Shown one piece after another: positions 17,747 through 64,000 of a stretch of 64,000 bases of DNA. Origin of the DNA: an uncultured Candidatus Saccharibacteria bacterium (lineage in GTDB: Bacteria > Patescibacteriota > Saccharimonadia > Saccharimonadales > JBBQAJ01); the NCBI GenBank assembly GCA_964593805.1, contig CAZQHP010000001.1:64091-128090 (forward strand). The letters are read 5' to 3'. The notes under the pieces were generated by a model. It was not told where the DNA came from. It saw only the letters and a list, made by a program, of their open reading frames with translations, and ran no database searches. Position 1 is the stretch's first letter, and each line of letters starts with the position of its first letter. A program made the position numbers and the translations under genes.

Positions 17747-17760
17747 TAAACGGCTTCGCC

Positions 17761-17769: not shown

Positions 17770-17825
17770 AAAGCGTAACTGTAATCATGCAAATGCATAC
17801 AAGACTTTAGGTGGGCCAAACATTC

Positions 17826-20770: not shown

Positions 20771-20779
20771 TGATTTGGC

Positions 20780-24603: not shown

Positions 24604-24621
24604 TAAAAGAAGGGTAGTTAA

Positions 24622-27280: not shown

Positions 27281-27297
27281 AGCCTTATTGTATATGT

Positions 27298-30636: not shown

Positions 30637-30719
30637 GTAACAACTTTCAAGTAACAAGTTTGCAAGATTTATGGTGGAGTTTTCTTGACACTTGTACCTT
30701 GACACCTGAAACTTGATAT

Positions 30720-31097: not shown

Positions 31098-31160
31098 TTA
31101 ACCAGGGGCTTAATTTCCCCTGTTAATCATGTTAAGATATAACCAAGAAAGAGAGGATAA

Positions 31161-39156: not shown

Positions 39157-40155
39157 ATGGCAAAAAGCGCACTGATAACTGGCATTACCGGGCAAGATGG
39201 ATCGCATCTGGCTGAACTGCTCCATGAAAAAGGCTATGAAGTGTTTGGCGTGATTCGCGGACAGCAAAACCCGCGCCGCGTTGCTACGGAAAATTTGCTG
39301 CCATTTGTGAAGCTAATCGAGGCGGACGTAACAGATTTGTCGTCTCTTGTCCGCGCCATAGAAGTGGCAAAACCAGACGAAGTTTATAACTTGGGCGCCA
39401 TAAGTCACGTAGGCTACTCGTTCAAAGACCCGATTTTAACTGCCGAAGTCACAGCCAAGGGCGTGGTAAACATGTTGGAGGCTATTCGTCTGAGCGGCGG
39501 GACAAAAACCATACGTTTCTACCAGGCTTCAACTTCTGAAATGTTTGGCGGACTGGAATACAACCGACCAGAAAAAGGCTACAATGAAACATCTTTGTTT
39601 CATCCACGTAGCCCATACGGTGTAGCCAAATTATATGGCCATTGGATAACGATTAATTACCGTGAAAGCTATGACATGTTCGCCTGCAGCGGCATACTGT
39701 TCAACCACGAAGGCCCGCGCCGCGGCCTGGAATTTGTAACGCGCAAAATCAGCAATGCCGTAGCGCGCATCCAGCTAGGCAAACAAAAAGAGATTGTACT
39801 GGGTGACCTAAAGCCCAAGCGCGACTGGGGTTATGCTGGTGATTACGTAGAGGGTATGTGGCGCATGCTTCAGCAAGAGAAGCCAGCTGATTACGTGCTG
39901 GCTACCGGGGAGACCCATTCCATAGAAGAATTTTTGACATTAGCCTTTAAAGAAATTGGCATAGATGACTGGAAGCCGTATGTGCGCCAAGGTCAAGAGT
40001 TCATGCGCCCAGCCGAGGTAGATTTGCTACTTGGCGACCCCACAAAGGCAGAACAAGAACTGGGCTGGAAGCGCCAAGTTGATTTCCCTGGCCTAGTCAA
40101 GATGATGGTAGAACACGACCTAAAGCTAGAAAATTCTTCTCCCGGCAGTAAATAA
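39157..40155 (+). CDS. gmd: GDP-mannose 4,6-dehydratase
   Basis: ALITGITGQDGSHLAELLHEKGYEV, the STSEMFG catalytic region, YGVAKLYGHW (YxxxK) and the RRGLEFVTRKI pattern. Confidence 0.92.
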   Translation: MAKSALITGITGQDGSHLAELLHEKGYEVFGVIRGQQNPRRVATENLLPFVKLIEADVTDLSSLVRAIEVAKPDEVYNLGAISHVGYSFKDPILTAEVTAKGVVNMLEAIRLSGGTKTIRFYQASTSEMFGGLEYNRPEKGYNETSLFHPRSPYGVAKLYGHWITINYRESYDMFACSGILFNHEGPRRGLEFVTRKISNAVARIQLGKQKEIVLGDLKPKRDWGYAGDYVEGMWRMLQQEKPADYVLATGETHSIEEFLTLAFKEIGIDDWKPYVRQGQEFMRPAEVDLLLGDPTKAEQELGWKRQVDFPGLVKMMVEHDLKLENSSPGSK

Positions 40156-41085
40156 CTAGACTCGGCTTCGCCAATCGGCGACAACATCAGCCAGTGTGGT
40201 CTCAAAGGGAATCTCGGGCTTCCAACCAGTGTGGTCGGTAAGTTTTTTTGGGCTGCCATAAATAATAGGATTGTCAGAAGGGCGAACTTTAGAAGAATCC
40301 TGCTTTATCTCTGGCTTGCAGTCTGTGTTTGCTAAAATACCAGCCAACATATCACTACCGCTGTGGGCTACGCCAGAGCAAAGGTTATAAATTTCTCCAG
40401 TTTTGCCCTTTTCAAGTAAAAGGCGATATGCTCTTGCGATATCGCGAACGTCAGTATAGTCACGCTGTGCGTCCAGATTGCCCACTAGTATCTCACTGCT
40501 CAGACCCTTTTCTATTTCAATAACCTGTTTTGTTAAATCCGGCACTATAAAGCCCAGACCCTGTCCCGGTCCGAAGTGATTGAACGGCCGGGCAATTATG
40601 CATTCGAAGTCCCTAGTTTCGTAATATTGAGCCAGTTGTTCCTGGCCCATCTTGCTGACGTCATACGGCGAACTAGGCGAAACAAGAGAATTTTCAGTTA
40701 ACGGCAAATGTGCCGAGGCGTCGTACAAGTTTCCGCTACTGACTACCAAAAATCGCGGCTTAGCCTGCTGAGCCAAAGCTGCTTCGAATAGGTTCACTTC
40801 AATACCCATATTTGTAGTTATATACAACATAGGATCGTCAAAAGACGGTCCGACTGCTGCCAGGCCAGCCAGGTGAATCACGCCGTCAATGTCTTTAAAC
40901 GGAATTTGTCTTGTTTCCTCTGCACTATTCAAATCAAGTTGCAGATATGATGTAACAAATTCAGATTTTTCGATTTTGCCACCTGGTCGGTCTACCACCA
41001 CAACTTCAATATTATTTTTGGCCAGTTCTTTTACCAGATGTTTACCCACAAAACCGTTGCCACCGGTTACCAACACTCGTTTCAT
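40156..41085 (-). CDS. NAD-dependent epimerase/dehydratase (SDR); candidate GDP-4-keto-6-deoxy-D-mannose reductase (Rmd-like)
   Basis: Rossmann motif VLVTGGNGFVGKHL and YxxxK motif YDVSKMGQE. It abuts gmd tail-to-tail. The substrate assignment rests on context only. Confidence 0.6.
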   Translation of the reverse strand: MKRVLVTGGNGFVGKHLVKELAKNNIEVVVVDRPGGKIEKSEFVTSYLQLDLNSAEETRQIPFKDIDGVIHLAGLAAVGPSFDDPMLYITTNMGIEVNLFEAALAQQAKPRFLVVSSGNLYDASAHLPLTENSLVSPSSPYDVSKMGQEQLAQYYETRDFECIIARPFNHFGPGQGLGFIVPDLTKQVIEIEKGLSSEILVGNLDAQRDYTDVRDIARAYRLLLEKGKTGEIYNLCSGVAHSGSDMLAGILANTDCKPEIKQDSSKVRPSDNPIIYGSPKKLTDHTGWKPEIPFETTLADVVADWRSRV

Positions 41086-41163
41086 ATACTTAGGTTACAG
41101 CAGGATTCAGGCTTCACCAAGTCTGATTGCCCCAGGAGTGAAATACAGGTAAAATGAGCTGAA

Positions 41164-41976
41164 GTGCAAAATCTAAAACAACGCTACCGTTACTCGATTA
41201 TTTTGCTGAAACAGCTAGTTAAAACCGATTTCAAAATCAGGTATCAGAATTCAGTGTTGGGCTATCTTTGGACATTGCTAAGGCCGTTATTTGTGTTTGT
41301 GATTTTGTACTTTGTCTTTGTGAAGATACTCAAAACGGGCGGCGATATACCGCATTTTGGCGTCTATCTGCTACTGGGCATAGTGCTTTGGAATTACTTT
41401 GTAGAAGTGACAAACGGCGGTGTCAGCGCAATCGTCAACAAAGGTGAAATTATGCGCAAGGTAAACTTTCCGCGCTACGTAATTGTGCTGGCCGGGTCGT
41501 TTTCCGCGCTTATTAACCTGACGTTTAATCTAGCTGTGGTTGGGTTTTTTATGGTGCTATCCAAAACGGAAATAAGTCCAAGTGTTATATTTTTGCCACT
41601 GATTCTTATTGAGCTTTTCATTTTCTCGTTGTCGCTAAGTTTTTTACTAAGCGCCGTTTACGTGAAGCTTCGAGACGTGGGATTTATCTGGGAAGTTATT
41701 ATCCAAGGGGCGTTTTTTGCAACGCCAATTATGTACGCCTTTTCATTGGTGACTTCAAAAAGTCTGCTAGCTGGCAAGATTTTGATAAGCAGTCCGGTTG
41801 CCCAGATCTTGCAAGACGCACGGTACATGCTGATTTCCAAAAAAACTGACACTATGTACAGCGTGTTCCATACCACGTGGGCTTGGGCAATACCGGTGTC
41901 AATAGTTATTATTACCGCTGTAATATCGGTAGTATATTTTAGAAAACAATCGCCATATTTTGCGGAGAACGTATAG
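41164..41976 (+). CDS. wzm: ABC-2 type polysaccharide/teichoic-acid export permease
   Basis: A six-helix ABC-2 permease pattern (DFKIRYQNSVLGYLWTLLRPLF...), immediately followed by its ATPase. Start codon is GTG. Confidence 0.82.
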   Translation: MQNLKQRYRYSIILLKQLVKTDFKIRYQNSVLGYLWTLLRPLFVFVILYFVFVKILKTGGDIPHFGVYLLLGIVLWNYFVEVTNGGVSAIVNKGEIMRKVNFPRYVIVLAGSFSALINLTFNLAVVGFFMVLSKTEISPSVIFLPLILIELFIFSLSLSFLLSAVYVKLRDVGFIWEVIIQGAFFATPIMYAFSLVTSKSLLAGKILISSPVAQILQDARYMLISKKTDTMYSVFHTTWAWAIPVSIVIITAVISVVYFRKQSPYFAENV

Positions 41977-43166
41977 TGGACGACGTTGCCGTACGCGTTG
42001 GACGCGTGTCCAAGAATTTTCGTCTGCCGCACGAAAAAGTCAGTTCAGTCAAAAATCTTTTTGTTCACGCCGTTAGATACCTCAGAAATCATCGGACATA
42101 CGAAGTCCAGCATGCTCTAAAAGATGTTTCATTTGAAGTAAAACAAGGCGAATTTTTTGGAATTGTGGGACGGAACGGCAGTGGCAAGAGTACTTTACTC
42201 AAAATGCTTGCCGGTATATACCAGCCATCCAAAGGCAAAATCCAAGTCAACGGTAAACTGGTGCCGTTTATTGAACTTGGTGTGGGTTTTAGCCCAGAAC
42301 TAACCGGCAGAGAAAACGTGTATTTAAACGGAGCGCTGCTGGGGTTTAGTAAAAAAGAAATAGAAGCACAATACAAAGACATTGTGGATTTTGCCGAACT
42401 CGAACCTTTTATGGATCAGAAGTTAAAAAATTATTCTTCAGGTATGCAGGTTCGATTGGCGTTTTCAATGGCAGTGAGAGCCAAAGCTGATGTTTTGCTT
42501 ATTGACGAGGTTCTAGCGGTAGGCGACGCTGACTTTCAGCGCAAATGCTTTAATTATTTCAACAACTTAAAAAAGGAAAAAACGACCGTTATATTTGTTA
42601 GTCACAACATGGATGCTGTCAGAGAATATTGCGACAGGGCAATGCTGATAGAAAACAGTGAAGTAGTTGAAATAGGTTCTACCGACGAAGTTGCCGAAAA
42701 ATATCTGCAGCTGTTCATGGAAGATAAGACTGACGACGGTATTGGCGGCGAGGAAGAAAATCGATGGGGGGACCAAGCTATAAAAGTTATAGATATAAAA
42801 GTAGAAGTAACCAAAGAAACAATTATTATCAAAGAAACAATTAAAGCAACGCAAGCCATCGAACATCCGATTGCTGGTTTTCGCATAAGAGACGCTGCTG
42901 GCAGTGATATAACGGGTACAAATACTCTAATTGAAAACAAAACTTTGCAAAATTTTGAAAAAGGCCAGACTGCTGTGTTGGTTTGGCAGATGTACAATTG
43001 CCTGCGTGATGGCAAATATTCTGTTGATCCCGCCCTGCTTCACCCCGACAAAATTACAGTTGCTGATTGGTGGAATGATGCCGTTCGTTTTACGGTTAAG
43101 AAAAAAAGGCACATTCCATATACAATTGACCCAGGTTTTGACCTGACTGTTAAGGTGGAGCAGTGA
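41976..43166 (+). CDS. wzt: Polysaccharide ABC exporter ATP-binding protein with a roughly 150-aa C-terminal extension (Wzt-type)
   Basis: Walker A GRNGSGKSTL, signature YSSGMQVRLAF, Walker B LLIDEVLAVGD, then a non-ABC beta-rich C-terminal domain (residues about 250-396). Confidence 0.85.
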   Translation: MDDVAVRVGRVSKNFRLPHEKVSSVKNLFVHAVRYLRNHRTYEVQHALKDVSFEVKQGEFFGIVGRNGSGKSTLLKMLAGIYQPSKGKIQVNGKLVPFIELGVGFSPELTGRENVYLNGALLGFSKKEIEAQYKDIVDFAELEPFMDQKLKNYSSGMQVRLAFSMAVRAKADVLLIDEVLAVGDADFQRKCFNYFNNLKKEKTTVIFVSHNMDAVREYCDRAMLIENSEVVEIGSTDEVAEKYLQLFMEDKTDDGIGGEEENRWGDQAIKVIDIKVEVTKETIIIKETIKATQAIEHPIAGFRIRDAAGSDITGTNTLIENKTLQNFEKGQTAVLVWQMYNCLRDGKYSVDPALLHPDKITVADWWNDAVRFTVKKKRHIPYTIDPGFDLTVKVEQ

Positions 43167-44074
43167 TGATTGACCCCAAAGCTATTACCACTTACGCGCA
43201 ATATAACGAAGATCTCATTCTTGCGGCGTTGTTGTCAGACGTTAAACAGGGATTTTATGTTGATATCGGCGCCAATTATCCGGTTATTGATTCGGTAACA
43301 GAGTATTTCTACCAAAAAGGCTGGCATGGCATAAACATTGAGCCGCTTAAGAAGCTGCATAAACAACTGGCCGAAGCCAGACCAAAGGACATAAACCTAA
43401 ATATCGGAATCGGAGAAACAAAAAGTGAGGCTACTTTTCGTGAATATGTGGATGTACCTGGGCAGTCAACATTTGACCCGGAACAAAAAAAACAGCATGC
43501 AAAATCGTTAAAATATATAGACTACACAGTACGTATACTGCCACTGAGCGACGTATTGGCTAAATACAATCCAAAGCACATACACTTCATGAAAATAGAT
43601 GTCGAGGGTTTTGAATACGAGGTGGTGGCCGGGAATAATTGGGAGAAGTTCCGCCCAGATGTGGTGTGCATAGAAGCAAATCATGTCTCAAAAGACTGGC
43701 GCCCAATTCTAGTAGGGCATAACTACAAACTATTTATTGCCGATGGTCTGAATGAATACTATGTGGCACAAAAGCACTGGAATAGAACAGAAGGCTTTGT
43801 GGAGAAAATAGTAGAACTTGATTACCATGCGCTGAAACAGCACCAACAACAATCCTGGCATACTGATAGTGAAGAACTGGTGCGTACGGCCAAAGTTGCC
43901 GAAGAGCAGCAAAAACAAATACAAACCCACAAAGAAAACGTGGCTAATCTGCAAAAAATGGCAGCACTGACCCTGAAAAACAGACCATGGTTTTCAAGGT
44001 TCAAGCGGGCTATTTACGGGCTTACCGTAGACTGGGTGCGCTATAAAAAATCTTCTAAAAAGAACCTTCAATAA
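43166..44074 (+). CDS. FkbM-family methyltransferase with a C-terminal coiled-coil/amphipathic tail
   Basis: FYVDIGANYP and FMKIDVEGFEYEV are FkbM patterns. The C-terminal Gln/Lys/Glu-rich heptad-like region is EEQQKQIQTHKENVANLQKMAAL. The start overlaps the wzt stop (GTG at 43163 is an alternative start). Confidence 0.78.
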   Translation: MIDPKAITTYAQYNEDLILAALLSDVKQGFYVDIGANYPVIDSVTEYFYQKGWHGINIEPLKKLHKQLAEARPKDINLNIGIGETKSEATFREYVDVPGQSTFDPEQKKQHAKSLKYIDYTVRILPLSDVLAKYNPKHIHFMKIDVEGFEYEVVAGNNWEKFRPDVVCIEANHVSKDWRPILVGHNYKLFIADGLNEYYVAQKHWNRTEGFVEKIVELDYHALKQHQQQSWHTDSEELVRTAKVAEEQQKQIQTHKENVANLQKMAALTLKNRPWFSRFKRAIYGLTVDWVRYKKSSKKNLQ

Positions 44075-46583: not shown

Positions 46584-48548
46584 CTATAAGACGCCGGATG
46601 TCTGAGTGTGCCAAAAAGGGACGTTAAGCCAATTGTAAAGTACGGCGTTACCGTCCGGTTGTAGCAAGAGTCTTAAGCTGCCATGACCACTAGTACCGGT
46701 GTACCAAATCGGCTTGGCGCTGCGGTCGTATAGCACCAGATTGCCGTCTGGCTGCATGGCTAGAAATGACACCGACCTACCATCCGTACCCGTTGCCCAA
46801 GTGGCACGGTTTGGTGAATACAGTACAAGATTGCCGTCTGTTTGCAGTATCAATTTGAATCTGCGATCGGTCGTGTCTATGCTTTGGCCTGGATAAAGCC
46901 TGCCGCTTGGGAGGGTTGTATTGATATATGACAAGTGCTCGGGGGTATGAAGCGTATAGGTTGCCCACAAAACAGCGTTGCCGGCGCTATACATTACCAA
47001 ATTACCATCGGTTTGCACCACCAGGCGAGCGCCCGGATTTCCAGCTGTGGCTGTATTCCAAAGTGCCTGTCCGCCGGCGGTGTAAAGTACCAGGTTTCCG
47101 TCACCCTGCATTACTAGCCTGTTGGCAGTAGGAAACACACCCGTGTTCCATACGGTTTTGAAATTTGCATGCAAAGCCACATTGCCGTCTCGCTGCAAAG
47201 TAAGAGCCGACTGGGAATCCGGAGATAGCAACAAGTCGTCTTTATTCAGCGATTCTCCTGAATTTAACACCGAGTCGTTGCTATTGTTTGGAGAGGCAGC
47301 AGTGTTAACGTTGACGGTGAAGAACATACCCGGATCGTTCAGCCACTCCCGTCCCTCGACGAGCACGTTAAAATATTCATTGTAAGTACCTGTTGTTGCC
47401 GGAGCCTTCATGGTGAATTCAAAAGTACCTATTTGTCCGGGAGGGATTGTAGACTCCAGTAGTTGAGCTGGGCGGGCACTATTAAGCCAGTCTGTGTTGG
47501 CAAACTGGCTAACTCTATCCATTTGACGTGATGTTCCTAGGTGGAGAGTTGACTGACTCCATGTTTGAGTGCCCATGTTACGAGCTTTTACTCTTAGATA
47601 AATAGTTCCGTTTGGTACAACTGTAGGTGTCGAAGTAAATGATTGAGTCCGCCCAGAGTCGGTATATGCGTTTTGGCTTTCATATGACCATGCGTAGGGC
47701 ACTGGCGACAGGGTTGAGCCAAACCAGTCTATGTACATACGCCAAAAATTGCGGTTACCGTACGCACCGCAGCTGTCACCACTACCATACAAATTTGCAA
47801 GCGCGGATGCGTTAGGCTGGTAGGGGGTGTAGTTATATAGTCCAGCAGTTGCTTGGTTTTGTATGAACACGTTTGAACCGCCACAACCGGCGTTGGGATT
47901 GTATTGAATGTAGTTGTTCTGGCCGGCCGTGTAATTGAATAAATTTGCTTGTCTGGCGTATCGTTGGTATTGCCTGGCCGCATAGTAAACTTGATTATAA
48001 AATCCATAATACGTTGAATCACAATCTGCAGTATCAGGGCAGCCGTAACCGGTGGCACTGCGGTACTGCACGCTCCAAGGCCAGTCATCGGTTACCAAAC
48101 TCTGTTCTTTTTGCAGTAGCACCAACAAAACCTTAGGGCTAACTCCACAAGCCTGAGAAACGTCATAAATTATCTGAGCTGAAGTTTTAGTACCGCCTGT
48201 GATTGCTCCACAATAAGCATCGGCGGCTTTTGCTGCGGTGTCTTGTGAATAGTCCTTAAGACAAGTATATGGAGGCGGGTACCCACGGCTGGTGCCATAG
48301 GCAGCGCGCGTTGTGCCAGCATATGGCTGCGTCCCGTTTGTATCGCAAACCGGCACTTTGGCGTTCATGAAACTCTGAATATCACCCGGATTCATAGTAT
48401 TGGGGTTAAAGAAAACGGCGTCGTCAATAATCCGACCCGCGCTAAAGTCGCTGCCGGAAAGAGCTTTTGCAGGTGCGCTGGAACTCAGAAGCAGCAAACA
48501 AAGTGTTGCGGAGATTATAGAGACATAGAATTTTCTAGTAAATGCCAT
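46584..48548 (-). CDS. Secreted multidomain protein ending in two bulb-type (monocot mannose-binding) lectin domains
   Basis: It has a signal peptide. Six QxDxNxVxY-type motifs are present: LQRDGNVALH (degenerate), MQGDGNLVLY, VQTDGNLVMY, LQTDGNLVLY, MQPDGNLVLY, LQPDGNAVLY. The N-terminal region carries an ...SPKVLLVLLQKEQSLV... module and an Ig-like module. Confidence 0.8.
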   Translation of the reverse strand: MAFTRKFYVSIISATLCLLLLSSSAPAKALSGSDFSAGRIIDDAVFFNPNTMNPGDIQSFMNAKVPVCDTNGTQPYAGTTRAAYGTSRGYPPPYTCLKDYSQDTAAKAADAYCGAITGGTKTSAQIIYDVSQACGVSPKVLLVLLQKEQSLVTDDWPWSVQYRSATGYGCPDTADCDSTYYGFYNQVYYAARQYQRYARQANLFNYTAGQNNYIQYNPNAGCGGSNVFIQNQATAGLYNYTPYQPNASALANLYGSGDSCGAYGNRNFWRMYIDWFGSTLSPVPYAWSYESQNAYTDSGRTQSFTSTPTVVPNGTIYLRVKARNMGTQTWSQSTLHLGTSRQMDRVSQFANTDWLNSARPAQLLESTIPPGQIGTFEFTMKAPATTGTYNEYFNVLVEGREWLNDPGMFFTVNVNTAASPNNSNDSVLNSGESLNKDDLLLSPDSQSALTLQRDGNVALHANFKTVWNTGVFPTANRLVMQGDGNLVLYTAGGQALWNTATAGNPGARLVVQTDGNLVMYSAGNAVLWATYTLHTPEHLSYINTTLPSGRLYPGQSIDTTDRRFKLILQTDGNLVLYSPNRATWATGTDGRSVSFLAMQPDGNLVLYDRSAKPIWYTGTSGHGSLRLLLQPDGNAVLYNWLNVPFWHTQTSGVL

Positions 48549-49186: not shown

Positions 49187-51313
49187 ATGCCCCAAACAAT
49201 CAAAAAAAACGGGAATCTTAGGCTTTGGCTTTCTAAGGCTTGGGTTCAGTGGTTGCTGGCAGCTATAATCTTTTTTTTATTTTCATGGCTTTATATGGGC
49301 CAAGCAATCAGCAGCTGCTCGACCGCTTCAACGGCACTCGGCAGTGATAGTACTGGTGGGTTCGGCTGGGTGCAGTGGGCTGGGGGCAATGATATGTCGT
49401 GGGGGGCTACAGATAAGAGCAACTATCCTTTCGGTGAACAGTTAGGAAAACCACAATTTATCACTTCCGCAGTCTTTATATTTGCATACAAACTGTTTTC
49501 ATCTTTGACTACGCCCATCTGCGGCTTGAATTTGATTGTGCTGCTTGGCTATATGTCGACAGCTCTTACGATGTTTGGATTGGTCCGTTGGCTGTCGAGG
49601 CGTTTTGATATTGCGCTTTTTGCCGGCTACGCGGCAGCCTTTGTGCCTTTTCATTTGATCAAATCACAAAGCCACGTCAATTATATTTATGGCAGTATAT
49701 TTATAGGGGTTATATGGGCTTTTCTATGGCTCCTCAGCAAGCCATCATATCGACGAGCGGCGGTATTGGGCGTGGTGAGCGCCCTGGGATTTTATTTTGA
49801 CGGCTACTTTATTTTAATAACCAGTTTACTTCTTCTTGGTCTATTTGCCGCTCCATTTGCTCTAGATTTTATAAAATTGATAATTAATCGCAAAGCCTGG
49901 CGAGACATTTTAAGAAAATCGTTTGTGCGACTAAGATACATCATATTTTCAGCAATAGTGCTTGCCCTATTGCTCGTACCAATCTTGTTAGTTTTTAGGG
50001 CAAGCGGAGATGCAATTAGCCAGTCGTTAGCGTCAGTCCGAAGTAATATAAAAGCAGAAACATTGATTTATGGAGCAAGGCCGATTGAATTTATCCTTCC
50101 CCCTTACAATAATCCATTGCTGCCTACTGAATACGCTGGCTGGAGGGCCCAAAAACTTCACAGTTCAAATTATTCAGAATCTACGCTTTACGTTGGATAC
50201 ACTGTGCTATTGCTGGCATTTATTGGGCTAGCGGGCTTGAGTCGCAGCAAACTACGCCGGGAAAAGCTAAAAGGAATACCATACACAGATCTAGTTTTTT
50301 CAACCACATTTGCATGGATTGTATGTTTTGCATTTTCACTTCCTGCTGTAGCCTTCCTATTCGGACACGATATACGCATGCCGACTTTACTACTGATTAA
50401 GCTGACGGCAAACTGGCGCGTCTTGTCACGGCTGTTTTTGGCGATGGATCCCCTAATTGTGCTTATGGCAAGTCTGGGTCTTTACTTCCTAACCAGAAAT
50501 AAATCACGGTTGATGCAGATAGGGACAGTCTTTGTTTGCGGACTGCTCTTGTTTTTGGAGTATTTGCCGACGCCACTACACACCACGAACGACCTTTATA
50601 AAGACGCACCACCCATATACAAGCAACTTGCAAACGATGACAGTACGAAAATAGTTGCCGAATACCCCATAGCTGACTTCAGGTATACCCCATCCATTTT
50701 TACCTTTCAGCCCATGCACAAAAAGATACTAGTTAATTCAAACGATTCCAGTATTTCAAGAGGACCATTTCTCGCCAGTTTTGCTGGCCTTAACGATAAA
50801 CAAACCCTAGGTACTTTAAAAAGTCTGAAAGTTGACGAAGTTATTACTCATGGTTTCAAATCTGACAACTCGAGCCTTGCGCAATTTTTTGAAAATCCTA
50901 ACTATAATCCCGACGGTACGCTCAACCTGCCGGCGAGTAGCTACGCCTACAGGCTGGGCGAATCAGTCAACCCAATCAATAGCTTGCTGGTGATAAAAAA
51001 AGGTTATGTAGCGCTGTCTGTGGACAGCAACCAAGTAAGTCACAGGATCATAACTAGCAATGCTACTTTGTATGTCTTTCATATTATCCCAAGCCCTGCC
51101 ACACAAAAATATAGAATCAGTTTTGCGGCCAATTCTATCTGTGAAAACCCTGCGGAGGTAACCATTTCACAGGGCGGTCAAACTATTTGGTTCAGTAGTG
51201 TCGGCAAGCTACCGGCAAGTATTGAGCTAACTGTGGATGATGAAGAATTTAACGTGCAGACGAAGCTATGTTCTATAGACGTCTCGAACCTAAGTTCAGC
51301 GCCATTACCCTAA
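49187..51313 (+). CDS. Large polytopic membrane protein with a C-terminal soluble domain; possible GT-C-type (YfhO/ArnT/PMT-like) glycosyltransferase
   Basis: About 12 hydrophobic helices span the first roughly 470 aa, followed by a roughly 240-aa hydrophilic domain. The assignment rests on architecture and context only. Confidence 0.5.
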   Translation: MPQTIKKNGNLRLWLSKAWVQWLLAAIIFFLFSWLYMGQAISSCSTASTALGSDSTGGFGWVQWAGGNDMSWGATDKSNYPFGEQLGKPQFITSAVFIFAYKLFSSLTTPICGLNLIVLLGYMSTALTMFGLVRWLSRRFDIALFAGYAAAFVPFHLIKSQSHVNYIYGSIFIGVIWAFLWLLSKPSYRRAAVLGVVSALGFYFDGYFILITSLLLLGLFAAPFALDFIKLIINRKAWRDILRKSFVRLRYIIFSAIVLALLLVPILLVFRASGDAISQSLASVRSNIKAETLIYGARPIEFILPPYNNPLLPTEYAGWRAQKLHSSNYSESTLYVGYTVLLLAFIGLAGLSRSKLRREKLKGIPYTDLVFSTTFAWIVCFAFSLPAVAFLFGHDIRMPTLLLIKLTANWRVLSRLFLAMDPLIVLMASLGLYFLTRNKSRLMQIGTVFVCGLLLFLEYLPTPLHTTNDLYKDAPPIYKQLANDDSTKIVAEYPIADFRYTPSIFTFQPMHKKILVNSNDSSISRGPFLASFAGLNDKQTLGTLKSLKVDEVITHGFKSDNSSLAQFFENPNYNPDGTLNLPASSYAYRLGESVNPINSLLVIKKGYVALSVDSNQVSHRIITSNATLYVFHIIPSPATQKYRISFAANSICENPAEVTISQGGQTIWFSSVGKLPASIELTVDDEEFNVQTKLCSIDVSNLSSAPLP

Positions 51314-55364: not shown

Positions 55365-56612
55365 CTAGCGTTTTACGGTTTTAGCAATTCTGAGTAAAAT
55401 ACCATATGATGCCATGCCAGCCAAAAGGCTAAGCCAGAGCGTACGTATCATTTCGAGTGGCGTGTTTGAGAAAAGTAACGGCATTAAAATACTGAATACA
55501 AGTACGAGCCCTGCAAGCAGGATGGAGCTTTTTTGGCGACACAACAGCAAATAGAATCCATACAATGTTATTGCAACTAGCGTAAGTTGATAAAGTGTCG
55601 CAAAGATAAGAAGGTTGCCTTGATTGGCGAAGCTGGCTCCCAGCAGTAACTTGGCCAAAAAGCTCTTGAAAACCAATTCTACCGAAAGAGCCACCAGACC
55701 AAGCATTGCGAGCAACTTATAGCCCGTAACCAGCATGCGCCGATTATTTGCCCGATTTTCTATCTCTATCTCGGGCAGTATTATCCAAATCAGCAAAAAA
55801 CAGACGTAATAAAGGGCATTGCTCAAAATGCTTATACCGCTGTAGACACCTGCAACGGCAGGGTCAAATAATGCCTTTGCCAGAATAATGTCGTAGTTTT
55901 GCAAGAAGCTAAGCACGCCCACCACCAACAGGCATAATAGTATATAGCTCTTCAGGCCGATAATAAATCTGTGTTCCTCGGAGCCGCTTTTTTTGAAAAG
56001 CGAGCCAATGCTCGGCAGTCTAACGCCCGGAACTAGGCGCAAAACAACCAGTCCTACCAAGGCCCCACATAATATTCCAAGTAAACCTCCGTTTGAACCA
56101 AAGGCTATTGCCAACATGCTGGCAAATATAAACTTTGCCAACGCCGCACTAATATTAAATCCGCCGACTCTGACCAGCTCCTTATTGCCCTGTAGATAGC
56201 CAGTCCAGATTATTCCGGGTATTGCGGTCAAAAGAATTAGTGCAAGTATAAAAAACGAGCTTATATCTTGGACTCGCAATAGATTACGCAAATAAGGCGA
56301 CGCAACCAGCATAGTTGCAGTGGCACCTAGAAATACCCAAATAAGGAATTTCTGAATTACCTGTGCGTGATTTCTGGCTTTTTCTTCTTCGTGAGCCTTT
56401 ACCAGATAGATAGATATAATATTAAAAGCCAATAAAATACCCAGTATCTGGTTAGATATGGCGACAATTACAGCAAAATCCCCAAATTCTTTGGCGCTCA
56501 GAGTTCGAACCAGAACAGGGTACAGGGCATAGTTAAACAGCGCACCCGTGAGGGAAAGAACACCGAAAAGCCCTGACCGCACATAGAAATTTGATAATTT
56601 GAAATCTTTCAC
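55365..56612 (-). CDS. Polysaccharide biosynthesis/oligosaccharide flippase (Wzx-like, MOP superfamily)
   Basis: 415 aa, almost entirely hydrophobic helices (about 12), sitting in a glycan locus. Confidence 0.7.
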   Translation of the reverse strand: MKDFKLSNFYVRSGLFGVLSLTGALFNYALYPVLVRTLSAKEFGDFAVIVAISNQILGILLAFNIISIYLVKAHEEEKARNHAQVIQKFLIWVFLGATATMLVASPYLRNLLRVQDISSFFILALILLTAIPGIIWTGYLQGNKELVRVGGFNISAALAKFIFASMLAIAFGSNGGLLGILCGALVGLVVLRLVPGVRLPSIGSLFKKSGSEEHRFIIGLKSYILLCLLVVGVLSFLQNYDIILAKALFDPAVAGVYSGISILSNALYYVCFLLIWIILPEIEIENRANNRRMLVTGYKLLAMLGLVALSVELVFKSFLAKLLLGASFANQGNLLIFATLYQLTLVAITLYGFYLLLCRQKSSILLAGLVLVFSILMPLLFSNTPLEMIRTLWLSLLAGMASYGILLRIAKTVKR

Positions 56613-56738: not shown

Positions 56739-57881
56739 ATGAAAATCAGCGAAGCTACATTTACAATTATAGCCAATGGCTTTGCGGACGGGCCGGCTCA
56801 GCCGCTAAGGGATTATCTGCTGGAGCATAAAGCCAAGAAACTTATAATGGTGAATCACCCGCTTGTTGCCGAGGGAAGCAACAAGCACATTGTAGCTATC
56901 TACGTAAAAGGTAAGCTGAAGAGCCACAAAAAATACAAATTACCTAACAAACCTCCCTACACGTTTGCTTTTGATCCCTTGGTGCCGTTGAAGCTGCCTA
57001 AAAGCGATGCCTGGTTTGGCTTTAACAATCTAGCCACGCTCAGGGGGTTGCGGCACAAGAAACACGGCAAAGCTCAAAAAGTTTATTATTGGGCGGTCGA
57101 TTTTGTTCCTAATAGGTTCGGGAACAATATACTAACCAAGATATATAACAAGGTAGATAAAAAAGTTAGCATGCAGGCTGATGCTCGTATCGAACTTGCG
57201 GAAACCGCAGTTGCAAAACGAGCTAAATATTTAAACCTGGATACCAACAAAACGGCACCAACCATAACAGTGCCCATGGGTACTTGGCTTGAGAGAACGC
57301 CTAAAATAAAAGATACGGCCTGGAAAAGCAAAAAAGTCGTTTACCTTGGGCACTTGGTTGAGAGACAGGGCGTTGCGACGTTAATCAAAGCCTTGGGAAT
57401 GATAATCAAAGAAGACCCAGGCGTAACGGCCGATATAATTGGAGGCGGGCCGCTTGCTGATAGCCTGAAGGCTCAAGCAAAAGAACTGGGCATAGCCAAA
57501 AAAGTAACTTTCCATGGTTTTGTAAAAGATCATCAAGACGTAGAGGCAATACTGGCAAAAGCCACTGTAGCCGCAGCGCCATATGTTAAAGACGAAGCTA
57601 GTTTTACCCAGTTTGCCGACCCTGGGAAAATTAAAGCATACCTAGGCGCTAACTTACCGGTCGTGCTTACGGACGTTCCGCCAAATGCCCGCGAGCTGGA
57701 AGCAAGTGGCGCAGCTTTAGTTGTAGAAGACAGCCCAGAAGCTGTTGCGGCTGGTCTGCAAGAGTTGCTGCAAAACCAGGTAAAATGGCAATCTGCGCAT
57801 AAGGCTGCTGCAAAACTAGCCCAAGAATTTGACTGGAATAACTTGCTCAAACGCGCACTGAGCAAACTAGGATTTGAATAA
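56739..57881 (+). CDS. Glycosyltransferase, GT-B fold (GT4-like, divergent)
   Basis: Length and C-terminal half (VVYLGHLVERQGV...FHGFVKDHQDV...) resemble GT1-domain proteins. The EX7E-type motif is not canonical. Confidence 0.6.
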   Translation: MKISEATFTIIANGFADGPAQPLRDYLLEHKAKKLIMVNHPLVAEGSNKHIVAIYVKGKLKSHKKYKLPNKPPYTFAFDPLVPLKLPKSDAWFGFNNLATLRGLRHKKHGKAQKVYYWAVDFVPNRFGNNILTKIYNKVDKKVSMQADARIELAETAVAKRAKYLNLDTNKTAPTITVPMGTWLERTPKIKDTAWKSKKVVYLGHLVERQGVATLIKALGMIIKEDPGVTADIIGGGPLADSLKAQAKELGIAKKVTFHGFVKDHQDVEAILAKATVAAAPYVKDEASFTQFADPGKIKAYLGANLPVVLTDVPPNARELEASGAALVVEDSPEAVAAGLQELLQNQVKWQSAHKAAAKLAQEFDWNNLLKRALSKLGFE

Positions 57882-57883: not shown

Positions 57884-58825
57884 TTACTTTGTAGCCAAGC
57901 CTGACTCGTCAACAAACCATGCATAAGTTTGCTTCAGGCCTTCTTCAAAGGCAATCTTGTGGCGCCAGCCTAGCTCATGCAGTCTGCTTACATCCAAGAG
58001 TTTTTTTGGCATACCATCAGGTTTGCTGGTATCAAAAACCAGCTTACCGGTGTAGCCCACCGTATCCTTTATAATCTGGGCGAGTTCTTTTATAGACACA
58101 TCCACCCCAGTGCCGACATTTAGGAATTCTTTGTCCTGGTAGTTTTCCATAAGCCAAAACACCGCGTCGGCAAGATCATCGGTATGCAGAAATTCTCGCC
58201 GGCTATTGCCGGAACCCCAGATTATAACCTCGGGAGCCTTGGCAACTTTTGCGTCGTGCATGCGGCGCATAAGCGCTGGTATGACGTGCGATGATTCAAA
58301 ATCAAAGTTGTCCCCCTGGCCGTATATGTTTGTTGGCATGCATGATATGAAATTAAGACCATGCTCAACATGAATATATTCGCAGAGTTTCATGCCGGCA
58401 ATTTTTGCGATTGCATAAGCTTCATTTGTTGGCTCTGGCTTGCCTTCAAAGAAATAATCTTCTTTCATCGGTTGTTTGCAGTTTCTAGGATAGATACAGG
58501 AACTACCCAGGAACAGCAGTTTCTTGGTTTTGAATTTCAGAGCCGACCACATCACATTGTTTTGTATCTGCAGGTTTTCGTACAGGAATTCAGCGGGGTA
58601 CGTCATATTAGCTTTGATGCCCCCGACTCTGGCGGCTGCCAAAATAACATAGTCCGGTTTTTCTGATTCAAATAAATCATTCACGGCCTTTGGGTCTGTC
58701 AGATCAAGTTCGGCATGAGTTTTCATGACCAAATTAGTGAATCCCTCGGCCTTCAGCCGCTTTGTGATACCCGACCCGACAAGTCCGCTATGACCGGCAA
58801 CGTAGATTTTATCCGTTTTGTTCAT
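57884..58825 (-). CDS. GDP-L-fucose synthase family enzyme (Fcl or ColC-type 3,5-epimerase/4-reductase)
   Basis: KIYVAGHSGLVGSGI, GSSCIYP and YAIAKIAG (YxxxK). It is translationally coupled (4-nt overlap) to the upstream 3-dehydratase-like gene. Confidence 0.85.
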   Translation of the reverse strand: MNKTDKIYVAGHSGLVGSGITKRLKAEGFTNLVMKTHAELDLTDPKAVNDLFESEKPDYVILAAARVGGIKANMTYPAEFLYENLQIQNNVMWSALKFKTKKLLFLGSSCIYPRNCKQPMKEDYFFEGKPEPTNEAYAIAKIAGMKLCEYIHVEHGLNFISCMPTNIYGQGDNFDFESSHVIPALMRRMHDAKVAKAPEVIIWGSGNSRREFLHTDDLADAVFWLMENYQDKEFLNVGTGVDVSIKELAQIIKDTVGYTGKLVFDTSKPDGMPKKLLDVSRLHELGWRHKIAFEEGLKQTYAWFVDESGLATK

Positions 58826-60042
58826 AGCTTTTTCAAAAGTTCCTGCAAGGTCTTAATCTCAGCAGAATTCATTTCGGCATTGTTGCCAAAATAAAATCCA
58901 TTGGCATGCACGATGTCCGAATTTGGGCAAGCAACCTCGTTTTTAGTATATTTTTGGTAAAATGGCTGCTTTGTCATGTTGCCTGCAATAACAGGGCGGA
59001 TCTCTACGCCCGCATCCATGAATTTTTGCTTGTATTGCTGGGCTGTAGCGTTGTCTTTGCAGATTATTGGCATAGCAAAATTCGACACGGTTTTCATGTG
59101 CGAAAGTTTGTATGTGAAGAAGTGGTCATTATCTCCGAGCGCCTTAGAAAATGATTCAAAATTTTTATGTCTTTGACTCACAATTTCGTCAAAATACTGA
59201 ATCTGCTGATTACCAAGAAAGCCATTAATTTCACTTGGCCGAGCATTATAGGCTAAATCATAAAATGTATATCGCGCATAGAATTCGTCTATGCCATATT
59301 GGTCGCGCAACTTTTTTTGATCGTCTGGGTTGAGGTTACGGTCCCAGCCATGGGCACGCCCCATGGTCAGGGCTTTGTATAGCTCCGGATCATCGGTGCA
59401 TATCATACCACCTTCAACGGTAGACATATGATGCCCTACAAAAAAAGAAAAAGTAGATGCCTGGCCAAAATTTCCCAGCAGCGTATCGCCCACTTTAGAA
59501 CCAAGTGATTCGCAATTATCCTCAAAGAAGACGATGCCCTTGCTATCACAAATGGTTTTTATTTTGTCTATTTCGTCAGCAAATCCAAGTACGTTGGTAA
59601 GAAAAAGCCCCTGAAGCTCATCTGCTTTTTCTTCCAATATAGCCGGCGAAACGTTTAGCGTGTCTGGATTGCAATCCAGCGGAACCGGCACCAGGCCCAG
59701 CTGGATTAACGGCATAACATTGGTTGGCCAAGTTAGAGCCGAAAAACCGACTTTGTCCCCGGGTTTAAGCTTGCCCAAGTTTATAAGAGCTTGTACAAGT
59801 AGTAGGTTTGCCGTGCTGCCACTGCTTACAAATACGGCGAACTCTCTGCCTTGTTTCTTGGCAAAGGCCGCTTCGAATTGCAAGCATTGTTCACCCATGC
59901 TCAGACGATCAGTTTCCAAAATAAACTTGGCTAAAGCCTGCTTTGTTTTTTTCTCATTATAAAAACTCGATTTCACGAGTTTGATCATGTGCTGTCCGGA
60001 ACTATACTTGTCTACCTTGCCAAGCCAGAAGTTCTTACTCAT
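58822..60042 (-). CDS. DegT/DnrJ/EryC1-fold sugar 3-dehydratase (ColD/E1-type, His in place of the Schiff-base Lys)
   Basis: SMGEQCLQFEAAFAKKQGREFAVFVSSGSTANLL, and STFSFFVGHHMSTVEGG, where aminotransferases carry SF...K...GEGG. The ATG at 59988 is an alternative start. Confidence 0.75.
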   Translation of the reverse strand: MSKNFWLGKVDKYSSGQHMIKLVKSSFYNEKKTKQALAKFILETDRLSMGEQCLQFEAAFAKKQGREFAVFVSSGSTANLLLVQALINLGKLKPGDKVGFSALTWPTNVMPLIQLGLVPVPLDCNPDTLNVSPAILEEKADELQGLFLTNVLGFADEIDKIKTICDSKGIVFFEDNCESLGSKVGDTLLGNFGQASTFSFFVGHHMSTVEGGMICTDDPELYKALTMGRAHGWDRNLNPDDQKKLRDQYGIDEFYARYTFYDLAYNARPSEINGFLGNQQIQYFDEIVSQRHKNFESFSKALGDNDHFFTYKLSHMKTVSNFAMPIICKDNATAQQYKQKFMDAGVEIRPVIAGNMTKQPFYQKYTKNEVACPNSDIVHANGFYFGNNAEMNSAEIKTLQELLKKL

Positions 60043-60088: not shown

Positions 60089-61048
60089 TCAGCGCCGTAA
60101 ACGACTGGAGGTATTTCCTTCCAGCAGGCGAATAAAGTGGACCGTAGCGATTAGAATGCTTTTTTGCTGCAGTGCACGTTTAGCCTGGAACTCGGGACTG
60201 TCTTGTTCAATTGCTGTCTGTTGGGCTGGATGCTTATACGCTACGGGCACGGACTGTACTCGATATTTTCGAGCCAAAGCGGCAATAATAGGCAAAAAGA
60301 TAGCGTTTGACCATAGATCAGGATGGTCTTTTGTTAGTCCTGACTGGCGTTCGCCAACAAACTCATACCGGTCTTCAAATAAACTGACTAATCCGGGCTC
60401 ATTCTTAAATATTCGCGGGCCAATCCAGGCGTCAAGCTGCTCGGCATGATCATCCAAAAGATGATGACGCCGCAGAATGCCATTCCATGCTTTGTTGCTT
60501 TCTTTTTCAAATTTGACTTGATAATCAGGATAAGTCCCGAAGCCGTCCCCGTCTCTGCTTGGTATTATGAGATCTGCTTTGTCTTCGAGGATTAACTTTG
60601 CCGGCTCAATTAAGCAATCACGAACCATCGATACTTTTTCTGGTTCTGTCCAACATATGACTTTTACACCATCCAACTTGCTGACCGACTCAAACGCCTG
60701 TCTTCGTCCGGCACTCATGCCTGGCTCAGACTGCGCCTCAACCACTACGCCAGTAGCTTCCAGGGCTTTTTTAAACTCCTCAGAGCTTCCCCCATCTACC
60801 ACCACAAATTTGTATCCTTGGGCTGCTGCAAGGCCGGCAGTGGTCAATGCCAAGTCACCGCGAACCTTATCTGAGGTTATAGGTCCGCCTTCCCCGGACC
60901 TCCAAGTAGGGTACAAGGTAGTAGTGGCTATACCGACCTGCTGAGCAATTTGTAGGCGCTCGGAGTCTGAAAAACTGGCAGTTTCATCTGTTGGCAGGAA
61001 GCTGCGTTCATGATTTGAGGCATTAGCCGCGGACGTACTCATTTCCAT
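60089..61048 (-). CDS. Hypothetical protein (possibly nucleotide-sugar-transferase-like)
   Basis: Continuous 319-aa ORF in the glycan locus. The weak pattern FVVVDGGSSEEF...DLIIPSRDGDG is not confidently assignable. Confidence 0.5.
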   Translation of the reverse strand: MEMSTSAANASNHERSFLPTDETASFSDSERLQIAQQVGIATTTLYPTWRSGEGGPITSDKVRGDLALTTAGLAAAQGYKFVVVDGGSSEEFKKALEATGVVVEAQSEPGMSAGRRQAFESVSKLDGVKVICWTEPEKVSMVRDCLIEPAKLILEDKADLIIPSRDGDGFGTYPDYQVKFEKESNKAWNGILRRHHLLDDHAEQLDAWIGPRIFKNEPGLVSLFEDRYEFVGERQSGLTKDHPDLWSNAIFLPIIAALARKYRVQSVPVAYKHPAQQTAIEQDSPEFQAKRALQQKSILIATVHFIRLLEGNTSSRLRR

Positions 61049-61127
61049 ATTATAGTAAATAATACGACTTTTGTCAATCTGCTCATAGTTTGCTAAGCTT
61101 GTAAGGATATCTGGAAAGGATTTTGAT

Positions 61128-62447
61128 TTGAAAATTGCAGTTGTAGGTACTGGTTATGTAGGTCTTGTAACTGGAACCTGCCTAGCCGAAACGGGCAATA
61201 CGGTTGTTTGTGTTGACGTGGATCAGGCAAAAATTGCCAAAATGCAAAAAGGCCAAGTGCCCATATACGAACCCGGACTGGATGCGGTTTTTGAGCGCAA
61301 TATGGCAGAAAAAAGACTGTCTTTCACCACCGAACTAAAACATGCCGTAAAGGACGCCGAAGTAATCTTCCTCGCTCTGCCTACGCCGCCAAACGGCGAC
61401 GGGTCAGCCGACTTGTCGTACATAATGGACGTAGCTGGCGAGTTGGGAAAAATTCTGGATCACTACTGCGTGGTGGTCGATAAAAGCACCGTACCAGTCG
61501 GTACAGCTGTTAAAGTATCCGAAATCATCAACCAGAAGTCAAAAGCCAAAATAGACGTGGTTTCCAATCCTGAATTTTTGCGCGAGGGTTTTGCGGTGTC
61601 GGATTTTATGAAACCGGACCGAGTAGTAATTGGCGCCAACTCAGAACGAGCTTTTGAAGTGATGCGAAGACTATACGACCCGTTTGTACGGCAGTACAAC
61701 GCAGTTATGGAAATGGATACTGCCTCTGCTGAAATGACAAAATACGCCGCGAATGCCTTCCTGGCTCTAAAAATTTCTTATATGAATCAGGTGGCAGCGC
61801 TTTGCGAAAAGCTGGGAGCTGATGTGGACCATGTGCGTCGTGGCATTGGAGCCGATGAGCGAATCGGCAAAAGGTTTTTGTTTCCTGGCATTGGATACGG
61901 CGGCAGCTGTTTCCCAAAAGATGTAAAAGCGATTATAAACACTGCCCAAAACAGTGGCGTAAAGTTTGAAATTCTAGAAGCCGTTGAAGCCGTAAACGCC
62001 AGGCAAAAACAACTTTTGCCTGAAAAGATAAAGCAGTACTATAAGCAAAACCTAAAAGGCAAGACGTTCGCTCTGTGGGGTTTGGCTTTCAAGCCTGATA
62101 CCGACGACATACGCGAAGCACCGGCGCTTGAAATAGTGAAATCTCTGATAAAAGAAGGCGCAAAAATTGTGGCTTATGATCCCGAAGCTATGGATAACGT
62201 AAAAGCTGCCATGGCCAGCGAAACGGCACTTAGTTTTGCAGAAGACCACTACAGTGCGACTGAGGGAGCTGACGCCTTGATAATCGCTACTGACTGGCGG
62301 GAATTTGCCACGATTGATTTCTCTAAACTGAAAAAAGCACTGAAAACTCCCGTCATATTTGACGGCCGAAACATGCAGGAGCTCCATAATCTCCGCGGTC
62401 AGGGAATTTACTACGAAAGTATTGGCCGGGAGGTTGTGCGTGGCTAA
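61128..62447 (+). CDS. ugd: UDP-glucose 6-dehydrogenase
   Basis: KIAVVGTGYVGLVTGTCLAETGN and the catalytic Cys region GYGGSCFPKDV. TTG start with GAAAGGA upstream. Confidence 0.9.
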   Translation: MKIAVVGTGYVGLVTGTCLAETGNTVVCVDVDQAKIAKMQKGQVPIYEPGLDAVFERNMAEKRLSFTTELKHAVKDAEVIFLALPTPPNGDGSADLSYIMDVAGELGKILDHYCVVVDKSTVPVGTAVKVSEIINQKSKAKIDVVSNPEFLREGFAVSDFMKPDRVVIGANSERAFEVMRRLYDPFVRQYNAVMEMDTASAEMTKYAANAFLALKISYMNQVAALCEKLGADVDHVRRGIGADERIGKRFLFPGIGYGGSCFPKDVKAIINTAQNSGVKFEILEAVEAVNARQKQLLPEKIKQYYKQNLKGKTFALWGLAFKPDTDDIREAPALEIVKSLIKEGAKIVAYDPEAMDNVKAAMASETALSFAEDHYSATEGADALIIATDWREFATIDFSKLKKALKTPVIFDGRNMQELHNLRGQGIYYESIGREVVRG

Positions 62448-63349: not shown

Positions 63350-64000
63350 ATGATAACCGTAATTATTGCTGGCGGGTCGGGAACGCGCCTGTGGCCGCTG
63401 TCCACGCCAGAGTTTCCTAAGCATTTGCTCAAAATTAATAACGATAGCAAATCACTGCTTCAAAACACCTATGAACGCGCCAAAAATATCAGCAGCGCCG
63501 TATATGTAGTCACCGACGCCAGCCACGCCCACCACATCAAAGAGCAGTTGCCAGAGCTAAAAGACACTGCGTTTATAGTTGAACCAGCCAGACGTGGCAC
63601 AGCCAGCTGTATAGTAGCCGCGCTGGCTCACTTGACCGACAAGCACGATGTAAGCGAGCCAATTGCAGTCCTTTCTGCCGACCACTACATACGTGATACA
63701 GCGGGCTTTGAGCACAGTTTTAAGGTCGCGGCCGAAGCCTCTAAGCAGTCGGGAAGAATTGTCTTAGTTGGTGTTGAGCCTGACCACCCGGCTACAGGGT
63801 TCGGTTACATACAAAAAGACGGGATTTTTGATGAGAAATCTTTTGTATATAACGTGCACTCGTTCAAAGAAAAACCAGAATTTGACGTGGCCAGTGAATA
63901 CGTCAAAAGTGGCAATTACCTTTGGAACTGCGGTTATTTTGTAGGTTCGCTCAACACATTCAAAAAAAATATGAAGGCTCACGCCGAAGGCATGCTGGCT
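63350..64000 (+). CDS. manC: Mannose-1-phosphate guanylyltransferase, 3' end cut by window edge (not in ORF track)
   Basis: My translation is MITVIIAGGSGTRLWPLSTPEFPKHLL...GFGYIQ...FKEKP...YLWNCGYF, open to the window end. Confidence 0.85.
   Translation, partial: MITVIIAGGSGTRLWPLSTPEFPKHLLKINNDSKSLLQNTYERAKNISSAVYVVTDASHAHHIKEQLPELKDTAFIVEPARRGTASCIVAALAHLTDKHDVSEPIAVLSADHYIRDTAGFEHSFKVAAEASKQSGRIVLVGVEPDHPATGFGYIQKDGIFDEKSFVYNVHSFKEKPEFDVASEYVKSGNYLWNCGYFVGSLNTFKKNMKAHAEGMLA

Follow-up and report, generated by a model that had tools for sequence, protein, structure and literature searches.

Which sugar is made by two overlapping genes in the glycan locus of an ultrasmall bacterium that has no lipopolysaccharide (LPS)? 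The question arises from a 64,000-nt stretch of contig CAZQHP010000001.1 of an uncultured Candidatus Saccharibacteria bacterium (hereafter the window, meaning the whole stretch of DNA that was analysed), in which two open reading frames (ORFs) on the minus strand, 58822..60042 (406 aa) and 57884..58825 (313 aa), encode a protein resembling ColD, the GDP-4-keto-6-deoxy-D-mannose 3-dehydratase, and a 3,5-epimerase/4-reductase of the Fcl family. Sequence comparisons suggest that this pair probably catalyses the two final steps in a GDP-L-colitose branch that serves a surface glycan of a Saccharimonadales bacterium. The pathway itself is known, and the novelty lies in the unexpected group of organisms and not in a new kind of system. 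The closest named relatives of the 406-aa protein belong to Candidatus Saccharimonadales/Saccharimonadia, and other genes of the window include dnaA-dnaN-recF, yidC and a type IV secretion cluster of the type found in the candidate phyla radiation (CPR). The host, a CPR bacterium (Saccharimonadales), is ultrasmall and monoderm, devoid of LPS and not Gram-negative.

A ColD-like 3-dehydratase overlapping an Fcl-family gene

Both ORFs lie at exactly the coordinates given in a preliminary description of this DNA, and the 4-nt overlap that it reported between the 406-aa gene of the DegT fold and the downstream Fcl-family gene is real. The junction reads AAG CTA TGA / ATG AAC, and since the overlap is thus ATGA the two genes are probably translationally coupled. 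The colC and colD genes of Escherichia coli O55 likewise overlap by 4 nt, albeit in reversed order, as in the window the colD-like gene comes before the fcl-like gene.

Is the 406-aa protein a dehydratase or an aminotransferase? It belongs to the DegT/DnrJ/EryC1 family of fold-type I (PF01041, 207 bits, residues 31-400), and this aminotransferase fold and family, together with the name that its homologues bear at NCBI ('DegT/DnrJ/EryC1/StrS aminotransferase family protein'), would agree with an ordinary sugar aminotransferase making GDP-perosamine. Among all solved structures, however, the best matches are four entries of ColD of E. coli O55 (2gms with 219 bits, E 1e-63), residues 26-404 aligning to residues 11-390 of ColD, while E1 (140 bits), a putative NDP-hexose 3-dehydratase (133 bits) and aminotransferases (75 bits or less) rank lower and perosamine synthase reaches only about 72 bits. 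BLASTP against ColD of E. coli strain CB9615 yields 35% identity over 369 aa, and the ColD-like N-terminal pattern that had been pointed out earlier, LSMGEQCLQFEAAFAKKQGREFAVFVSSGSTANLL, is indeed present in the 406-aa protein. At the position of the Schiff-base lysine the protein carries, as had also been claimed, the string FSFFVGHHMSTVEGG, and HMMER aligns the residues GHHMST of the window protein with SHHIAT of E. coli ColD. The register is fixed by two mutant entries, 3b8x (H188N, reading SNH) and 2r0t (H188K, reading SKH), according to which the first histidine is His188 of ColD, and His204 of the window protein therefore corresponds to His188. The proposed replacement of lysine by histidine thus withstands proper alignment, and the HH motif recurs in 119 of 120 homologues. 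Histidine in place of this lysine is the hallmark of sugar 3-dehydratases (PMC8987622; bioRxiv 10.1101/2021.09.04.459008). With no Schiff-base lysine in the protein, the perosamine-forming aminotransferase is a barely credible reading.

The histidine and the dependence on pyridoxamine 5'-phosphate (PMP) are shared by a second type of 3-dehydratase, E1 (RfbH/DdhC, CDP-6-deoxy-L-threo-D-glycero-4-hexulose 3-dehydrase, 3bcx). An E1-type CDP-4-keto-6-deoxyglucose 3-dehydrase would fit the label 'CDP-6-deoxy-D-xylo-4-hexulose-3-dehydrase' that homologues often carry at JGI and the fact that the best NCBIfam model for the protein is RfbH, but its 203 bits fall far short of the cut-off (423 bits), and the same model gives 263 bits for E. 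coli ColD itself. Moreover, E1 has a [2Fe-2S] cysteine motif and needs an E3 reductase, both of which are absent here. The iron-sulfur segment of E1, rdCyCapgCdntC, aligns with a shorter, cysteine-free segment of the window protein ('drnlnp..dd..q'), no cysteine is found in this region across 117 homologues, and Arg235 corresponds to Arg219 of ColD, a position at which E1 has a cysteine; the absence of the E1 motif, which was to be checked according to the preliminary description, is thereby established. Scans with Pfam and NCBIfam, which took in all window ORFs of at least 150 aa, likewise agree with the earlier statement that no CDP-glucose pathway genes are visible: they detected no CDP-glucose pyrophosphorylase, CDP-glucose dehydratase or other gene of this pathway, no E3-type reductase and no heptose-nucleotide gene. 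The synteny of the ColD-like gene is with gmd and not with CDP-sugar genes. ColD, unlike E1 and SpnQ, needs neither a cluster nor a reductase (PMC8987622; bioRxiv 10.1101/2021.09.04.459008). Taken together, these observations make an E1-type enzyme highly improbable.

How far does the likeness to ColD (WbdK of E. coli O55 and Yersinia pseudotuberculosis; 2gms, 3b8x) extend? Fold, length, the histidine at the lysine position, the lack of an iron-sulfur motif and a locus with gmd and manC are common to both. In addition, the Saccharibacteria proteins have the same residues as E. coli ColD at G56, S57, D159, E162, S183, N248, R219, E329 and R331; we take the first six to be contacts of pyridoxal 5'-phosphate or the cofactor, and R219, E329 and R331 presumably contact the cofactor or the ligand. 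The window protein differs from ColD, apart from the modest overall identity, in a glycine in place of Ser187 and in an N-terminal extension of 18 residues that is common to its closest relatives only. From these data we infer that the gene encodes a ColD-type sugar 3-dehydratase, the catalytic residue of which would be His204, and GDP-4-keto-6-deoxy-D-mannose is suggested as its substrate by the gene context, mainly because of the synteny with gmd.

The database names of such proteins deserve a remark of their own. In RefSeq even the experimentally characterised ColD of E. coli O55:H7 CB9615 (locus L006, 5702-7788) is labelled 'DegT/DnrJ/EryC1/StrS family aminotransferase', and ColC of the same locus 'GDP-L-fucose synthase family protein'. 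NCBIfam seems to be without any model for ColD or ColC, which would explain the uninformative names on the CPR homologues.

Fucose synthase or colitose synthase

What is the function of the 313-aa partner? It belongs to the Fcl family of extended short-chain dehydrogenases/reductases (SDRs), to which both the GDP-L-fucose synthase Fcl (WcaG/GMER) and ColC (WbdJ) of E. coli O55 belong, and the catalytic residues Ser107, Cys109, Tyr136, Lys140 and His179 (numbering of E. coli Fcl) are conserved throughout, the partner included. If it were a plain GDP-L-fucose synthase, the product of the ColD-like enzyme would have to go to another reductase, for example the Rmd-like SDR of the same window, which would lead to a D-configured 3,6-dideoxyhexose, or the ColD-like protein would have a different role. 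Such a fucose synthase is suggested by the 55% identity of the partner to E. coli Fcl over the full length (370 bits to PDB entry 1e6u) as compared to 41% to ColC, Fcl and ColC being 39% identical to each other, by the fact that the partner is the sole Fcl-family gene seen in the window, and by the very presence of the Rmd-like reductase.

On the other hand, the partner scores 460 bits on the NCBIfam equivalog model of Fcl (NF047922), thus staying below the curated cut-off of 500 bits, whereas E. coli Fcl reaches 551 bits and E. coli ColC 304 bits. Nine further proteins coupled to colD behave like the partner (411-480 bits), while among the same loci two Fcl proteins with a gmd link reach 499 and 518 bits.

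The phylogeny gives a mixed picture. A neighbour-joining (NJ) tree with bootstraps was calculated for 73 Fcl-family sequences, among them a reference set of 14 true, gmd-linked Fcl proteins, 11 of which were plasmid-borne and added to the set, one of them encoded beside nodZ in Mesorhizobium. All 14 true Fcl proteins fall in a clade of their own that has no colD-coupled member (44% bootstrap), and the window partner is found outside of it, within a clade of 17 members from CPR and Streptomyces (65-75%) of which all but two are directly coupled to colD. In 70-77% of the bootstrap replicates the partner and E. coli Fcl stand together without E. coli ColC, and in 27% the partner joins ColC apart from every true Fcl protein, so that orthology with ColC does not follow from the tree. 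For the comparison of Fcl and ColC that had been proposed earlier, the outcome is therefore divided yet compatible with a ColC function: the position outside the true-Fcl clade, the score below the cut-off and two residues of ColC type speak for it, the higher identity to Fcl and the grouping with Fcl against it.

Which residues are these? Only Fcl positions 207 and 280, which fall in the conserved motifs GSGxPxREF and DGTPRKL, clearly separate the two classes after enlargement of the reference set. Position 207 is proline in 14/14 true Fcl proteins, alanine, serine, valine or asparagine in 39/40 coupled proteins, and serine in E. coli ColC; position 280 is threonine, alanine or serine in 14/14 true Fcl proteins and methionine in 39/40 coupled proteins as well as in E. 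coli ColC. The window partner has Ser208 and Met272 at these positions, and therewith the residues of ColC in place of Pro207 and Thr280 of E. coli Fcl. The side chains at both positions may touch the sugar, and the two positions may constitute a signature that distinguishes fucose from colitose synthases. N73, L114, P135, N177 and T206, which had appeared to discriminate when three true Fcl proteins were considered, failed once the 11 others were added.

The coupling of the partner is to colD, in contrast to the gmd coupling of Fcl, and this arrangement is kept in 44 of 81 related loci. A natural control is provided by a locus of Cyclobacteriaceae (L082), which retains a separate true fcl paired with gmd and has in addition a second fcl-like gene fused to colD. 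Considering all this, a plain fucose synthase appears unlikely, and the role proposed for the partner in colitose synthesis is that of a ColC by function, as suggested by synteny and signature residues, and not by orthology.

Gene context and the identity of the sugar

Does the gene context support a mannose-derived sugar? The gmd gene announced in the preliminary description (39157..40155, plus strand) encodes a genuine GDP-mannose 4,6-dehydratase (393 bits against TIGR01472; 354-365 bits to PDB entries 1n7g, 2z1m and 1rpn, with 365 bits to 1n7g), which would supply the substrate of the ColD-like enzyme. Equally real is manC, encoding mannose-1-phosphate guanylyltransferase, the 5' part of which starts at 63350 and runs off the window (63350..64000, plus strand); the 217-aa fragment scores 166 bits against TIGR01479, and the full gene encodes 346 aa. 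Just past the window, manC is followed by genes for a mutase of the PGM/PMM family, a glycosyltransferase of family GT4, an initiating transferase (Bac_transf) and a Wzy_C protein (L090). The family matches that confirm the genes of the locus have E values of 1e-60 to 1e-138 and are far beyond chance.

For a broader comparison, relatives of the ColD-like protein were collected from one genome per species. At least 592 exist, and the analysis covered the best 80, none of them below 50% identity, resulting in 81 usable loci with the window and a Saccharibacteria locus (L007) counted in. Represented among these 80 are many CPR lineages, Streptomyces, Bacteroidota, Gammaproteobacteria, Planctomycetota, Verrucomicrobiota and two DPANN archaea. 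In 44/81 loci the ColD-like gene has an Fcl-family gene directly next to it on the same strand; gmd lies within 6 kb of the ColD-like gene in 44/81 loci and is directly adjacent to it in 26/81. The closest Saccharibacteria relatives have a tight gmd-colD-fcl operon, and two sister Saccharibacteria genomes have kept colD-fcl and a convergent GT4 gene beside ugd, an SDR gene and manC. The two DPANN contigs, a Woesearchaeota metagenome-assembled genome (MAG; L059, 31-3253) and a Nanoarchaeota MAG (L084), carry an operon of gmd, ColD-like and Fcl-like genes with 51% identity to the ColD-like protein of the window, which points either to a transfer of the cassette among ultrasmall archaea and bacteria or to contaminated bins.

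Several points weigh against assigning the pair to colitose. The ColD-like protein is just 35% identical to any characterised ColD, the partner is overall nearer to Fcl than to ColC, in identity as well as in the NJ grouping, and the deep branches of the NJ tree are weakly supported (44-77%). In the window gmd is located 19 kb away from the pair. In the literature searched, no paper was found that links colitose to Saccharibacteria, Patescibacteria or the CPR, the co-occurrences encountered being incidental; colitose has been predicted from genomes of other non-classical lineages, a verrucomicrobial endosymbiont among them. Finally, enzymes of Campylobacter jejuni that are 62-67% identical to ColD use a GDP-heptose analogue (PMC10440746).

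This last point raises the question of whether the pair could make another GDP-linked 3,6-dideoxy sugar, such as the 3,6-dideoxyheptose of C. jejuni HS:5 and HS:11. The GDP-heptose C3-dehydratases of these serotypes carry out chemistry of the ColD type on a GDP-4-keto-6-deoxy sugar, including the regeneration of PMP driven by glutamate (PMC10440746). Since such close homologues of ColD act on GDP-6-deoxy-4-keto-heptose, the sugar specificity is unreadable from the sequence alone and the context has to decide; the low identity of the window enzyme to ColD (35%) would also fit such a sugar. Here the context is that of mannose and not of heptose: genes for GmhA, HddA and HddC are found neither in the window nor in its flanks, genuine gmd and manC genes occur in the locus, and in 26 related loci gmd directly adjoins the ColD-like gene. 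Furthermore, the heptose pathway of C. jejuni divides epimerisation and C4 reduction between two enzymes (PMC10440746), whereas the partner encoded in the window is of the bifunctional Fcl type. A heptose pathway is therefore very unlikely. In summary, the readings as E1-type dehydrase, as aminotransferase and as part of a heptose pathway were rejected.

The proposed route to GDP-L-colitose

How would colitose be made in this organism? The way of working would be the same as in the ColD/ColC pathway of E. coli O55, Yersinia and Vibrio. ManB and ManC would provide GDP-mannose, which Gmd would convert to GDP-4-keto-6-deoxy-D-mannose. L-glutamate would load the ColD-like enzyme with PMP, and the enzyme would then form a ketimine at C4 of the sugar; His204 would take the C4' proton and the 3-hydroxyl group would depart, whereupon hydrolysis would yield GDP-4-keto-3,6-dideoxy-D-mannose and ammonia. 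In the last step the Fcl-family enzyme would epimerise C5 and reduce C4 with NAD(P)H. The chemistry of Fcl, C5 epimerisation followed by C4 reduction, is established, and when it is applied to the 3-deoxy substrate the product is exactly 3-deoxy-L-fucose, that is, colitose, here in the form of GDP-L-colitose. The same enzyme may also turn the product of Gmd directly into GDP-L-fucose. Colitose would probably be attached by a neighbouring glycosyltransferase, either the one encoded upstream of the pair or the conserved GT4 enzyme encoded downstream, to a surface glycan exported by a Wzx-type route, and in parallel gmd, the Rmd-like gene and wzm/wzt would produce a polymer of the D-rhamnose type. 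Decoration of the surface with colitose, as put forward in the preliminary description, is supported by this evidence from sequence; what has to be amended is the nature of the glycan, which is not an O-antigen because the host is a monoderm CPR bacterium, in contrast to the LPS-bearing E. coli O55.

Neighbouring transferases and export genes

Which proteins could attach and export the sugar? A 319-aa ORF on the minus strand (60089..61048) terminates 46 nt upstream of the ColD-like gene. Directly upstream of it, at 61049..61077 (read from 61077 to 61049 on the minus strand), lies a perfect match to the sigma-70 consensus (TTGACA-17-TATAAT, 12/12), a predicted promoter by pattern match only. 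Because of the 46-nt spacing, the ATGA overlap and this promoter match, the three minus-strand genes look like a single transcription unit, divergent from ugd (61128..62447). The 319-aa protein has no sequence match in Pfam or the PDB, but its AlphaFold2 model, predicted with high confidence (predicted local distance difference test score 90.6), displays the glycosyltransferase fold GT-A, and the top matches of the model in Foldseek are the glycosyltransferases GpgS, MpgS and GtrB (E 5e-8, template modelling score about 0.5). Eighty homologues were found, mostly in CPR. Of 80 loci with ColD-like genes, 8 have such a homologue beside the ColD-like gene, one of them (L024) between colD and fcl, and the gene is absent from the two sister Saccharibacteria genomes. 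This divergent GT-A protein may be the transferase for the product of the pathway.

A second candidate transferase is the GT4 glycosyltransferase (Pfam Glycos_transf_1; 56739..57881, plus strand) that is convergent on the Fcl-like gene. Its position and orientation are kept in six related loci (L007, L008, L010, L012, L088 and L089), with identities of 50-57% where measured (L007, L008, L010 and L012). Adjoining this gene, a multi-pass membrane protein (55365..56612, minus strand) that is 24% identical to a protein of L007 with a Polysacc_synt domain (PF01943) and conserved in L008, L010 and L012 is probably a Wzx-type flippase.

A possible parallel GDP-D-rhamnose branch

The Rmd-like reductase described earlier as lying next to gmd holds up as well. 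It is encoded on the minus strand (40156..41085), its best solved relatives, 2pk3 (191 bits) and 6x3b (174 bits), are both Rmd, and as a predicted GDP-4-keto-6-deoxy-D-mannose reductase it would feed a parallel GDP-D-rhamnose branch. The gene adjoins wzm and wzt, which encode an ABC exporter (41164..43166, plus strand; NF050109 and NF050108/NF010065), and a gene for an FkbM methyltransferase; together with gmd the block covers 39157-44074. When the gmd gene of the window was compared by blastn to E. coli genomes, gmd-rmd-wzm-wzt clusters of the O99/O60 type were found (L001-L003) and not colitose clusters, and the whole block with FkbM is arranged closely like the O-antigen clusters of E. coli O99/O60. 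This suggests an ABC-exported polymer of the D-rhamnose type alongside the Wzx-type route near colD. Owing to this resemblance it is also reasonable that several GDP-6-deoxyhexose branches diverge from one gmd.

Within the same glycan locus, near gmd, the Rmd-like gene and wzm/wzt, a 654-aa protein (46584-48548, minus strand) has repeated B-lectin (monocot mannose-binding lectin) domains and matches the family of the lectin-like bacteriocin putidacin L1 (165 bits). Lectin-like bacteriocins of the putidacin L1 family bind D-rhamnose polymers. A homologue is present in L007 (3527-5611), and a faint B_lectin match at the edge of L088 likely represents another.

Other features of the window

A further protein of the glycan locus, of 708 aa (49187-51313, plus strand) and without a Pfam match, has homologues with 27-29% identity in glycan loci of related Saccharibacteria (twice in L007, and also in L010, L056 and L067) and thus belongs to a conserved, uncharacterised family. 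At the edge of the locus an IS200-like Y1 transposase gene (32660-33274, plus strand) adjoins the gene of a 926-aa protein with a GDSL lipase/acylhydrolase domain (33341-36121, minus strand).

The type IV secretion-like cluster (11445-26229) comprises genes for a T4SS pilin, a PrgI-family protein, an ATPase of the TraG/VirB4 type and a lysozyme/VanY hydrolase, and it also holds large proteins without family matches, among them ones of 1174, 878 and 535 aa. It is followed by recF, dnaN and dnaA on the minus strand, about 1.1 kb without an ORF of at least 150 aa (30008-31160), and then yidC and a gene for a Jag/R3H protein; the chromosomal origin probably lies in this stretch (26234-32587). Four tRNA genes (Ser-TGA, Ser-GCT, Arg-GCG and Ser-CGA) are clustered at 6124-7817.

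Implications

What would such a pathway mean for the Saccharibacteria and for the enzyme families involved? Public names such as 'aminotransferase' and 'CDP-sugar dehydrase' hide a likely GDP-colitose pathway, and the two-residue signature may help genome annotation to tell colitose synthases from fucose synthases. Tentatively, the pair may also represent a large uncharacterised lineage, consisting of a ColD-like dehydratase of about 35% identity to ColD and a reductase that is derived from Fcl and bears the signature of ColC, with members in CPR, DPANN, Bacteroidota, Streptomyces and others. If such a lineage exists, surface glycans well beyond the O-antigens of Gram-negative bacteria would commonly contain colitose or a close 3,6-dideoxyhexose, Fcl positions 207 and 280 would act as a switch between fucose and colitose synthases, and in episymbiotic Saccharibacteria the sugar could be one of the factors behind host recognition or immune evasion. 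If the sugar is made, ultrasmall epibionts without LPS would display the immunodominant dideoxyhexose of the O-antigens of E. coli O55/O111, Yersinia and Vibrio, which would bear on the recognition of Saccharibacteria by bacterial hosts, phages and animal immune systems.

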